From assembly GCA_045629525.1 (NCBI GenBank), contig JAZQRH010000012.1:24023-88022 (forward strand): 64,000 nucleotides of DNA, written 5' to 3'. Each line of letters opens with the position of its first letter. The first letter of the stretch is position 1. A model generated the notes under the pieces. It did not search any database and was not told the origin of the DNA. It worked only from the letters and a program-made list of their open reading frames with translations. Source of the stretch: Pedobacter sp. Lineage in GTDB: Bacteria; Bacteroidota; Bacteroidia; Sphingobacteriales; Sphingobacteriaceae. The translations under genes and the position numbers were made by a program. Positions 16,394-18,340 of the stretch are shown here, in pieces.

Positions 16394-16401
16394 TATATTT
16401 G
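16394..16401 (+). promoter_or_regulatory. -7 promoter element driving the TPP riboswitch leader
   Basis: TATATTTG ending 6 nt upstream of the aptamer 5' end. Confidence 0.7.
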
Positions 16402-16407
16402 CACTAC

Positions 16408-16557
16408 TCAAAGGGGTGCTTACATTCTTATTGTAGGCTGAGATTACACCCAGTTTTTGAGTTAATAGTGAAATTTGAGTCTCCTGCGAATCGATTTGAA
16501 TTTTCACTTTTAACTTTAAAACGCACCTGATGCGGATAATACCGACGTAGGGAAGAG
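16408..16557 (+). promoter_or_regulatory. TPP (thiamine pyrophosphate) riboswitch aptamer with ~70-nt inserted helix
   Basis: GGGGTGC-P3(cttaca/tgtagg)-CTGAGA-ttac-ACCC ... ACCTGAT-gcgg-ATAAT-accg-ACGTAGGGA; all canonical TPP signature blocks are present. Confidence 0.93.
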
Positions 16558-16569
16558 GTTACCGATATG

Positions 16570-16602
16570 GCTGTTTCGCCCTGAAAGCAGTTTTCACTTT
16601 TT
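16570..16602 (+). terminator. Riboswitch expression-platform terminator
   Basis: GCTGTTTC-gccct-GAAAGCAG followed by TTTTCACTTTTT; the 5' arm could alternatively pair with AGGGAAGAG (16549-16557) as an antiterminator. Confidence 0.6.
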
Positions 16603-16631
16603 AACATCCCTTTGGGAATAATGAATTGAGA

Positions 16632-17261
16632 ATGGAAATTCAGGAAATACTGCGCATTTTTATGGAGCAGGTTAGATCTACGGGTTATTTAGAGTGGTTT
16701 GCAGTCAGCTTCGGCGTAGCAGAGGTGTTGTTAGCGAGACGTAATAATATTTTGCTCTATCCGGCTGGTATTGTGAGTATTGTTTTGGCTTTATACCTAA
16801 AGCTCACCTCAAAACTATATGCGGAAAGCTTACTTAGCATGTATTATTTGATAATGAGCGTTTACGGGTGGATGATTTGGTCTCAGCGAAAAAGAAACAA
16901 ACAAGCAGCATTACCTGTCAGTTGGACCACAAAAAGTGAACTTCAAATTGCGCTAACTATTTCCATCGGCGGATATTTTGTATTGTATGGCTTTTTGGTG
17001 CAGTTTACAAATTCAGATGTTCCGATCCTAGACGCTTTTGTATCGTCTACCGCTTGGGCTGGAATGTGGCTGTTGGCCCGCCGAAAAATCGAAAATTGGA
17101 TATTTCTGAACGTTTCTAATATTGTAGCCATCCCACTAATGTGGCATAAAGATTTTGTCATGTTTGCCTTCCTTACCATGTTCTTTTTTGTCGTTGCTAT
17201 TTTTGGTTATATCGATTGGAAGAAAATTTACAAATCACAACAACTTAACCCACTTAATTAA
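16632..17261 (+). CDS. pnuC: PnuC-family vitamin transporter, probably thiamine-specific (PnuT)
   Basis: Multi-TM protein with LEWFAV.FG....LLARR.NI..YP.GI, YGW.IW, DAF.S..A..GMWLLARRKIENW and FGYIDW; directly downstream of the TPP riboswitch. Confidence 0.88.
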   Translation: MEIQEILRIFMEQVRSTGYLEWFAVSFGVAEVLLARRNNILLYPAGIVSIVLALYLKLTSKLYAESLLSMYYLIMSVYGWMIWSQRKRNKQAALPVSWTTKSELQIALTISIGGYFVLYGFLVQFTNSDVPILDAFVSSTAWAGMWLLARRKIENWIFLNVSNIVAIPLMWHKDFVMFAFLTMFFFVVAIFGYIDWKKIYKSQQLNPLN

Positions 17262-18340
17262 TGAATACCCAAACAACTTGGCAACAGCGCATCTCTTCAT
17301 TAGCGGCTTCATCTGAGGAATTGGGCACTTTGCATCCCGACGTTTTGGAAATTGCTTATCAAGAGAATTGGTTTAAGCTATACGTTCCTGTCGCTTATGG
17401 TGGTCCAGGAAAAAAACTTCCAGAAATTTTAAGGATCGAAGAAGCGTTAGCCTATATTGATGGCAGTACTGCATGGACCGTCACTCTCTGTAGTGGTGCT
17501 GCATGGTTTGCCGGCTTTTTAGACCCTGCTCTTGTAACCGAAATATTTGTAGAGCGAGAGGTTTGTTTCGCAGGTAGTGGGTCCGTTGGAGGAACTGCTC
17601 AGCAAGTTGGCGAAGGTTACTTAATTAACGGTCACTGGAAGTATGCAAGTGGAGCGTTGCATGCAACCATCTTTACAGCTAACTGCATATTACAAAATGC
17701 ACAAGGGAAGGATTTTTTGGATGATGAAGGAAAACCTGTAGTGAAATCATTTATCCTAAAAAAGGACGAAGTAAATATTTTGCCAGGTTGGTCTTATTTT
17801 GGTTTGGTCGCTACAGGAAGTCACGCTTTCGAAGTTGAGAATTTGCTGGTACCCCAAAACCGCTCGTTCGAGATTAATTCTACGCCTAAAGTTGCTGATG
17901 AAGGTTTCGATTATCCTTTCTTGCAATTAGCAGAAACCACTTTGGCTGTAAACAGCTTAGGTATGGGCCAACGTTTCCTAGATTTAGTTCATAGCGCTTT
18001 TTACAGTCGATCTGGATTGCGACGATATAATGAAAACCAAACCGCTTTTTTCGAGTCAGAGTTTTTAAAGTGTAAGTCTGGTTTAATAACAGCAAAAGAT
18101 AATTTTTACCGTGCTTTTGATAATTCTTGGCAACAATTGCTGGAGAATGGTAGCATAAACGATGATCAATTACGGTTAGTAAGTAAAGCAAGTAGAGAAC
18201 TGGCGCATCAATCAAGAATTTCGGTTGATACCATGTATCCGTATGCTGGATTGGAGGCTGCAAAGAAAGAAACAGAACTTAATCGGGTTTGGCGAGACAT
18301 CCACACGGCGAGCCAGCACGCATTGTTAACTTTTAAGTAA
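17261..18340 (+). CDS. Acyl-CoA-dehydrogenase-fold flavin-dependent monooxygenase (HsaA/IacA-like, group D)
   Basis: LYVP..YGG, DGSTAW, GY.ING.WKYASG..HA, W...GL.ATGSH, and C-terminal RVWRDIHTASQH; TAATG overlap with pnuC. Confidence 0.85.
   Translation: MNTQTTWQQRISSLAASSEELGTLHPDVLEIAYQENWFKLYVPVAYGGPGKKLPEILRIEEALAYIDGSTAWTVTLCSGAAWFAGFLDPALVTEIFVEREVCFAGSGSVGGTAQQVGEGYLINGHWKYASGALHATIFTANCILQNAQGKDFLDDEGKPVVKSFILKKDEVNILPGWSYFGLVATGSHAFEVENLLVPQNRSFEINSTPKVADEGFDYPFLQLAETTLAVNSLGMGQRFLDLVHSAFYSRSGLRRYNENQTAFFESEFLKCKSGLITAKDNFYRAFDNSWQQLLENGSINDDQLRLVSKASRELAHQSRISVDTMYPYAGLEAAKKETELNRVWRDIHTASQHALLTFK

Follow-up and report, generated by a model that had tools for sequence, protein, structure and literature searches.

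What is a helix of 70 nucleotides (nt) doing in the junction of a thiamine pyrophosphate (TPP) riboswitch? The question is raised by the leader of a pnuT-type thiamine transporter gene of Pedobacter sp., found in a stretch of 64,000 nt (contig JAZQRH010000012.1 of assembly GCA_045629525.1, positions 24,023 to 88,022; hereafter the window, numbered from its first letter). All window features reported here are on the forward (+) strand. An earlier note, made from the sequence alone, had recognised a TPP aptamer with 73 nt between its ACCC and ACCUGAU blocks and proposed that they represent a structural subclass, a captured palindromic element that is tolerated, or a second sensing module such as a thermosensor. 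Reading of the sequence confirmed the aptamer with its insert, and comparison with related leaders supported the structural subclass: the same site is occupied in 76 of 81 related pnuT leaders by a helix that covaries strongly, and shorter forms were found in other Bacteroidota and in Treponema.

Direct reading and alignment to the Rfam model RF00059 showed that all conserved blocks of a TPP aptamer are present at 16407-16557. In sequence order, GGGGTGC..CTGAGATTACACCC (with ACCC at 16448-16451) is followed by the 73 nt (16452-16524) and by ACCTGATGCGGATAATACCGACGTAGGGAA, which starts at 16525. The first half of the aptamer is made of CUC (P1), AAA, GGGGUGC with the P3 hairpin, CUGAGA and UUAC-ACCC, and ends at 16451; the second half, ACCUGAUGCGGAUAAUACCGACGUAGGGAA-GAG, begins at 16525. 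In the whole-aptamer fold, the 5' strand of P1 (CUC, 16407-16409) leads into an A-rich J1/2 linker (AAA, 16410-16412), and ACTCAAA was kept immediately 5' of GGGG in 60 of the 71 leaders matching the full pattern. The pyrimidine-sensor arm (16413-16451) comprises the P2 5' strand GGGGUG, the P3 hairpin (about 16418-16438), CUGAGA (16438-16443) and the P2 3' strand ACCC (16448-16451); P2 (GGGG/ACCC), P3 and the CUGAGA lone-pair triloop were all formed in the minimum-energy fold. The E. coli thiM sequence CUGAGAAAUACCC, a canonical aptamer without the optional P3a stem, is arranged like this arm. The pyrophosphate-sensor arm (16525-16557) reads ACCUGAU..GGAUAAUACC..CGUAGGGAA and ends with the P1 3' strand GAG (16555-16557). 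ACCUGAU, GG(A/U)UAAU(A/G)CC and CGUAGGGAA were found in P4/P5, and the covariance model aligned 16525-16554 with a posterior probability of about 1. Every ligand-contact block was found, as the earlier note had maintained. On these sequence grounds we regard 16407-16557 as a genuine TPP riboswitch that governs a thiamine transporter of the PnuT type, and TPP binding and repression are predicted. It shares with the canonical TPP riboswitch or THI element (RF00059; E. coli thiM, PDB 2GDI; Arabidopsis THIC, 3D2G) the blocks GGGGUGC, CUGAGA, ACCC, ACCUGAU, GGAUAAUACC and CGUAGGGAA, the order of P1 to P5, the thiamine-transporter context and a terminator-like platform. Unlike the canonical form, it has a fourth helix at the junction, made by a 73-nt J2/4, the linker being AAA in J1/2, P1 being only about 3 base pairs (bp) long and the score being 35 bits against a threshold of 54.3.

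The J2/4 insert is exactly 73 nt long, compared with about 5 nt in canonical aptamers. Folded alone, it formed a single unbranched hairpin of 27 bp with an energy of -21.9 kcal/mol and a z-score (z) of -4.9, and none of 200 dinucleotide shuffles folded as well. The same hairpin was formed alongside P1, P2/P3 and P4/P5 in the whole-aptamer fold. The extra helix, which is supported by folds, z-scores and covariation, occupies 70 nt (16453-16522) and is closed by an 11-nt apical loop. The stem blocks listed in the earlier note (GTTTT/AAAAC, GAGTTAA/TTAACTT and AGTGAAA/TTTCACT) were all found in the fold, together with 8 more apical pairs; the hairpin itself was correctly called, but its size (about 22 bp) was slightly underestimated. 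The description of the stem as AU-rich applies to the window genome but not to most relatives. In a covariance-model scan no Rfam family other than RF00059 matched the insert, and a search of the window (64 kb) and of 200 loci found no second copy of it.

Relatives were collected by a scan with the transporter protein, keeping one genome per species. The 80 loci obtained (L001-L080), all from Pedobacter or close Sphingobacteriaceae, were analysed with the window as a set of 81 pnuT leaders. Inserts of 39-93 nt (median 82 nt) were found between ACCC and ACCUGAU in 76 of these, window included; 75 of the 76 folded as a single hairpin, with a mean z of -3.5 and z < -2 in 64 cases. Leaders from Pseudopedobacter/Pelobium (L020, L026 and L069) carried hairpins of 5-7 bp at the same site with unrelated sequences (AAUGUC/GACAUU, GACGA/UCGUC and AAACUG/CAGUUU), and the site was filled in 79 of the 81 leaders. 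L045 and L076, which have a canonical GUAGA junction, were the sole leaders without a helix. Many pairs of inserts were no more alike than shuffled sequences are (identity of about 0.55). RNAalifold analysis of whole-insert MAFFT alignments was uninformative because the AAGG/CCUU repeats permit many registers, and was replaced by an anchored test of the basal helix. Since the flanks anchor the register, pairing of position i with position i+1 counted from the 3' end of the insert could be tested with no fitted alignment. Across 68 distinct sequences, pairing in this register was 84-99% at positions 3-9, and every slid register was much lower. In a 64-row alignment (A1), 81.9% of the cells in the basal nine pairs were paired, as opposed to 61.1 ± 1.4% after shuffling, and the covariation score was 0.632 versus 0.224 for shuffled rows; neither value was reached in any of 500 shuffles, and slid registers scored 0.09-0.27. 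Double changes were found at all nine pairs. The comparison of pnuT leaders suggested in the earlier note therefore revealed a covarying basal helix, and the insert is not the strain-specific, non-covarying feature which that note had considered as an alternative.

A covariance-model search, also suggested there, showed that RF00059 did not report the window's aptamer at its gathering threshold (54.3 bits). With relaxed settings only the 3' half was aligned, at 35.3 bits, because the model cannot bridge the 73-nt insert. None of 40 insert-bearing Pedobacter loci reached the threshold (relaxed scores 33-46 bits) and both insert-less loci exceeded it (61.7 bits for L045 and 58.2 bits for L076). 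The shortfall in score is due to the insert and not to the core.

Metagenomes were scanned with the pattern CTGAGA-N3-9-ACCC-N14-44-ACCTGATNNGGNTAATNCC, which matched at least 120 stretches; 80 loci were examined. About 45 of 81 among the matches listed were true J2/4 hairpins of 4-15 bp, and the remaining listed matches were artefacts of the regular expression, in which a P3a stem contains ACCC. Members of the hairpin class mostly had CUGAGAU(U/C)AUACCC, the flanks A-U-(U)..(A)-U-G-C and an A-rich J1/2. They scored 37.5-52.9 bits, RF00059 threading the J2/4 hairpin into the P3a slot with non-canonical pairs. Genes located behind J2/4-hairpin aptamers encoded PnuC-family proteins, TonB-dependent receptors with the Bacteroidota carboxypeptidase-regulatory domain, ThiC and ThiT/YuaJ. 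A second group, with the flanks GCA(helix)CA, was found before genes for thiamine ABC substrate-binding proteins (ThiB), and its named relatives were all Treponema. An optional J2/4 helix is common and is present in at least two phyla, in many Bacteroidota and some Spirochaetota, the Pedobacter pnuT form being the longest extreme. One locus (L143:1526-1793) contained two tandem TPP aptamers with J2/4 hairpins of 22 and 36 nt upstream of a putative outer-membrane protein gene. No TPP aptamers were found in the viral contigs scanned.

Our literature search retrieved P3a and k-junction work only and no description of a J2/4 helix, an early mention of an 'additional stem-loop' being possible. P3a is the sole optional stem listed by Barrick & Breaker 2007 (PMC2258182); the k-junction papers, in which more than 11,000 Rfam sequences were analysed, do not mention a J2/4 helix (PMC4005666), and neither do McCown 2017 and the Bacteroides TPP papers. 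As to the possibility raised in the earlier note that J2/4 hairpins would be a common catalogued variant, they are common, but a paper cataloguing them was not found.

The three-way junction of TPP riboswitches has been described by the Lilley laboratory as a k-junction, with P2 as the C helix, P4 as the NC helix and, on the non-bulged strand and coaxial with P2, P1 as the third helix; J2/4 provides the k-turn loop (L1, L1.1, L2 and L3), followed by G1b, 1-2 bulged nt and A2b, the A of ACCUGAU, and L3 faces the solvent (PMC4005666, PMC10573300). The flanks of the Pedobacter inserts read ACC-C-A-U-(helix)-U-G-N-ACCUGAU. An A at insert position 1 together with a G two from the 3' end was present in 55 of the 68 distinct sequences, the pair made by position 2 and the third-from-end position was U.U in 47 sequences, with G-C replacing it in the clade of the window, and the lower-strand GGGAA was conserved. 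P1 is short and separated from P2 by AAA. Conservation of the flanks and the published layout (PMC4005666) map C16451 to L1 and A16452 to L1.1; the helix (G16453-C16522) follows, and the conserved G-N before ACCUGAU gives G16523 as 1b and C16524 as the single bulged nt between 1b and 2b (A16525), a layout also seen in the Arabidopsis k-junction. The outer G-C pair (G16453-C16522) occupies the places of L2 and L3. By comparison with the Arabidopsis sequence C-U-U-U-G-A-A, we infer that the helix is located between L2 and L3, which would offer a simple reason both for its tolerance and for the untouched ligand blocks. Similarly to the k-junctions described by Wang et al. 2014 (PMC4005666) and Li et al. 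2023 (PMC10573300), the loop, G1b, a single bulged nt, A2b and GGGAA are recognisable in the sequence; unlike these, where an extra helix is found on the non-bulged strand only, the bulged strand of the window's junction would carry a whole helix, placed between L2 and L3. In the Treponema-type thiB leaders with GCA(helix)CA flanks (L089, L094, L118, L121, L138, L146 and L160), the helix may instead lie in the 1b-2b bulge, by analogy with the E. coli sequence C-G-U-A1b-UC-A2b, and would then represent a second, independent insertion point. To our knowledge, there is no structure of a k-turn elaborated on both strands. In the sister clade of the window (L001-L012, around 1405-1425), 6-10 A/U-rich nt (for example UUUAAUAA) were observed between GGGA and GAGG, the expected P1 3' strand, leaving P1 only loosely tethered to the junction in these aptamers.

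Fast change is confined to the helix: the leader of L201, the closest relative (PnuT 94% identical), departs from that of the window only in the hairpin's apical half, and the L201 hairpin still folds (-22 kcal/mol, z = -4.1). The majority of hairpins (type A; for example L048:1309-1400) consist of short units repeated about every 7-9 nt, which resemble AAGG in the 5' arm and CCUU in the 3' arm. This makes the arms strongly asymmetric (G:C of 801:155 for the 5' and 213:892 for the 3' arm) and the registers slippery; repeat slippage or selection against folding within an arm may be the cause of the asymmetry. The window and its nearest relatives carry an A/U-shifted version of this type. A type B hairpin, without arm asymmetry, was found in four species scattered over the PnuT tree (L022, L033, L056 and L058), all sharing the motif TTGATWATTGGAR, which was present in none of the 196 other loci. 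Type B hairpins are 68-77% identical to one another and their pnuT genes 74-78%; the nearest pnuT relatives of each type B species (82-90% identical) have type A hairpins, with baseline identity. Two strains of Pedobacter nototheniae (L022:1240-1500 and L032:1250-1500) have leaders that are 96% and 90% identical on the two sides of the helix, the helix alone being fully replaced (88 versus 81 nt), precisely between ACCCAUU and AUGCACC. Such an exchange of one hairpin type for the other suggests cassette-like recombination or an old polymorphism. The locus was found in no RNA run; metagenome DNA contigs showed only strain variation, one related strain having the stretch from P3 to the hairpin swapped for 103 other letters. 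On the PnuT tree, long helices were found in both major clades and shortened ones were nested, L034 (49 nt) being sister to L027 (91 nt) and L018 and L019 (39 nt) standing beside L017 (82 nt); the insert-less L045 and L076 formed one nested clade (support 99/93). The length of the helix is not essential, as indicated by this loss and by the shorter J2/4 hairpins before PnuC, TonB-receptor, ThiC, ThiT and ThiB genes. The difference in length between inserts rises as their sequence identity drops, and insert length is only loosely held.

The gene downstream of the aptamer (16632-17261, with its ATG at 16632) encodes a PnuC-family, pnuT-type thiamine transporter of 209 amino acids (PF04973, E = 7e-49; product in the protein collection). 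It begins 75 nt past the aptamer, an arrangement common to the 80 related loci. Upstream of the aptamer, direct reading identified TATATTTG (16394-16401) as a match to the Bacteroidetes -7 promoter motif, the consensus of which is TAnnTTTG, and relatives have the motif just upstream of the aptamer; the leader is predicted to start, likely, a few nt 3' of this site. Downstream, a hairpin GGCUGUUUCGCCCUGAAAGCAG followed by UUUUCACUUUUU was found at 16569-16602. Its fold is weak (-6.7 kcal/mol, z not significant), and the platform motif CTGTTTCGCCC..GCAG with a T-run was found in 58 of 71 leaders. This conserved hairpin with its U-run is probably an intrinsic terminator acting as the expression platform; a consensus terminator scan made no call there. 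The loop of the terminator-like hairpin (16577-16582 in the window, and also in relatives) is a conserved CGCCC(C), complementary to the P2 5' strand GGGGUG, and an anti-terminator contact between the two in the ligand-free state is possible. Between the U-run and the start codon lies a small hairpin, CCC-UUU-GGG (16608-16616), where relatives have GCCnnnGGC or GUCGAAAGAC. In the minimum-energy fold of the full leader, CUCAAAGGGGU (16407-16417; P1, J1/2 and the P2 5' strand) paired over 11 bp with AUCCCUUUGGG (16606-16616). This long-range helix was rejected, being found only in the window and its 94% relative L201, farther relatives carrying other small hairpins there. The pnuT gene overlaps the start of an acyl-CoA-dehydrogenase-like gene (17261-18340; PF08028, PF02771), and the same pairing of genes was seen in L201 and L202.

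Several other explanations of the helix were weighed against these data. In our judgement it is next to impossible that the hairpin is no more than P3a, the optional stem already described, assigned to the wrong place. The Rfam model itself puts J2/4 hairpins in the P3a slot, but these forced alignments were below the threshold and bore non-canonical pair marks. In PMC2258182 and in the Rfam consensus line, P3a is flanked by CUGAGA and by ACCC, the 3' strand of P2, and so is inside the loop closed by P2, whereas CUGAGAUUACACCC comes before the window's hairpin, which follows ACCC in J2/4, and no C-rich strand able to pair with GGGG is found 3' of it. True P3a cases in the metagenome scan also look different (CUGAGAGGAAGU-ACCC-AAACUUC-GACCC). 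In our sample P3a and the J2/4 helix appear to be alternatives, the hairpin class having GGGGUG and no P3a. The two elements nevertheless have in common that they are optional peripheral hairpins of variable sequence, found outside the ligand pocket in a subset of members (Barrick & Breaker 2007, PMC2258182). It is scarcely more probable that the insert belongs to the expression platform, one arm pairing alternatively with the terminator, the U-tract or the start region. The sequence TTTTCACTTTTAAC in the 3' arm (16503-16514) does resemble TTTTCACTTTTTAAC in the U-tract (16591-16604), and L003, L006 and L011 have two copies of an 11-mer, GAGGTTTAAGC, one at the base of the 5' arm (around 1305-1320) and one just past the aptamer, in the region of the P1 3' strand (around 1425-1440); these copies are not general across loci. 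The U-tract/terminator TTTTCAATTATTTTTT is kept in relatives with GC-rich, unrelated arms, and the likeness of 3' arm and U-tract is a coincidence of AU-richness, because relatives with GC arms keep the platform CUGUUUCGCCCUGAAAGCAG and UUUUCAAUUAUUUUUU. Duplex energies of either arm with the leader, the post-aptamer segment or the terminator were no better than those of shuffles (mean z of -0.1 to -0.6 in 52 loci), compared with z = -4.1 for arm against arm. As the platform is conserved irrespective of the arm sequence and the duplex z is near 0, alternative pairing with the U-tract or terminator is largely refuted. The absence of conserved complementarity makes the hairpin a self-contained peripheral helix. 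An RNA thermometer or another second sensor, as put forward in the earlier note, is very hard to reconcile with these results. The window's hairpin is AU-rich with mismatches, and many Pedobacter are cold-adapted, but the stems of most relatives contain GC pairs and fold with -20 to -33 kcal/mol, and the hairpin, some 110 nt before the start codon, is paired only with itself and neither contains nor masks the start region. No conserved sequence motif or ligand-like internal loop was found, and the insert matched no Rfam family.

Two further explanations bear on the origin of the helix and on its use. In one, the hairpin is, or descends from, a mobile palindrome of the miniature inverted-repeat transposable element (MITE) or repetitive extragenic palindrome (REP) kind that landed in a permissive loop and is tolerated, type B being perhaps a second such element. 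The shared TTGATWATTGGAR motif and mutual identity of the type B hairpins, in species whose nearest pnuT relatives have unrelated type A hairpins, are what would be expected, as is the clean replacement between ACCCATT and ATGCACC in P. nototheniae. These swaps are equally explained by recombination through the conserved aptamer flanks. The window insert is the only copy in the 64-kb stretch and the 200 loci searched, the type B motif is absent outside its four homologous sites in those loci, and no terminal inverted repeats or target duplications were found apart from the stem itself. Type B copies have diverged as much as their host genes, so their spread is not recent. Unrelated short hairpins fill the site in two phyla, and presence is not sporadic: 79 of 81 leaders are occupied, with one nested clade of loss, the content of the site being exchanged but not its occupancy. 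With the position inherited vertically, the captured palindrome of the earlier note finds no support at this locus, and we consider a mobile origin improbable. The other explanation, which we find unlikely but far less so, is that the long helix is a functional module: a protein platform, a substrate for a ribonuclease (RNase) III-type enzyme, or a ruler-like arm that would tune mRNA stability or the TPP response through a tertiary or intermolecular contact of its tip or internal loops. Its length, about 27-33 bp interrupted by small, regularly placed internal loops, suffices for double-strand-specific proteins. The clustering of insert length at 79-85 nt (56 of 76 species) although sequence identity is near random, the like length of non-homologous type A and type B hairpins, and the persistence of a hairpin in shortened helices (L034 compared with L027) all argue for it. 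Against it, type A, type B and the AU-rich form of the window share no sequence or internal-loop motif, lengths span 22-93 nt with complete loss inside one family, and length differences rise with falling identity as they would under drift. A related possibility, about as doubtful, is that the J2/4 helix defines a distinct four-way-junction class, a k-junction elaborated on both strands, widespread in Bacteroidota, present in Spirochaetota and systematically missed or mis-threaded by RF00059, in which the arm of about 80 nt in Pedobacter is selected for length and kept through cassette exchange. If true, the arm might, for example, serve as a handle for a protein or an RNase, or tune folding or kinetics.

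We therefore favour, as the probable explanation of the locus as a whole, a lineage-conserved, self-contained peripheral helix in J2/4 of a genuine TPP riboswitch, either architectural or tolerated. The helix would exit the k-turn loop in the order C(L1) A(L1.1) U/G(L2), helix, U/C(L3) G(1b) N(bulge) A(2b). Because L3 faces the solvent and P1 is stacked on P2, it could leave the junction with no contact to the TPP pocket, turning a three-way into a four-way junction. It would play no part in the switching decision, for which TPP should still rely on the aptamer and on the terminator-like hairpin that follows it. The role of the helix is most likely architectural, as a junction brace or folding aid, or that of a tolerated expansion segment. 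The length of about 80 nt in Pedobacter would result from drift and expansion of AAGG/CCUU units, only the hairpin character and a loose length being kept; selection would retain the helix as a helix but leave it open to drift, growth, shortening and exchange by way of its conserved flanks, and it is dispensable in at least one lineage. The long variable arm of class II tRNAs and the expansion segments of rRNA offer an analogy, as variable, fast-evolving extra helices at a solvent-exposed junction point of a fixed core; the tRNA arm differs in being a synthetase identity element, whereas the window helix has no known partner. Several observations weigh against this explanation. Length is somewhat kept, with 56 of 76 inserts at 79-85 nt and a coefficient of variation of 0.11 versus 0.25 for P3, and the unrelated type A and type B hairpins are similar in length (81-88 nt), which hints at selection beyond mere tolerance. 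In alignment A1, U-A is found almost without exception at the first two pairs of the helix, which may make a specific contact at the junction. The four-way geometry is deduced from sequence comparison. In a crude test, the duplex energy of P1 was the same in the hairpin class and in the P3a class; P1 is not weaker in hairpin-bearing aptamers, so compensation for a weak P1 by the helix has no evidence.

Ligand sensing by the riboswitch is unaltered by these findings. They indicate that the hairpin is mislabelled as P3a where RF00059 does align, and they make the locus a natural case for probing the tolerance of the TPP k-junction; a helix emerging from between L2 and L3 would be a junction type with no structural description so far. 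The J2/4 site is a naturally validated permissive point at which scaffolds or reporter aptamers could be grafted on TPP aptamers. The combination of a fixed aptamer core with a fast-evolving, sometimes swapped helix of kept length makes a case for selection on shape over sequence. Since the insert-bearing pnuT riboswitches of our sample all fall below the Rfam threshold, thiamine regulons are under-called in Pedobacter, and probably in many other Bacteroidota.

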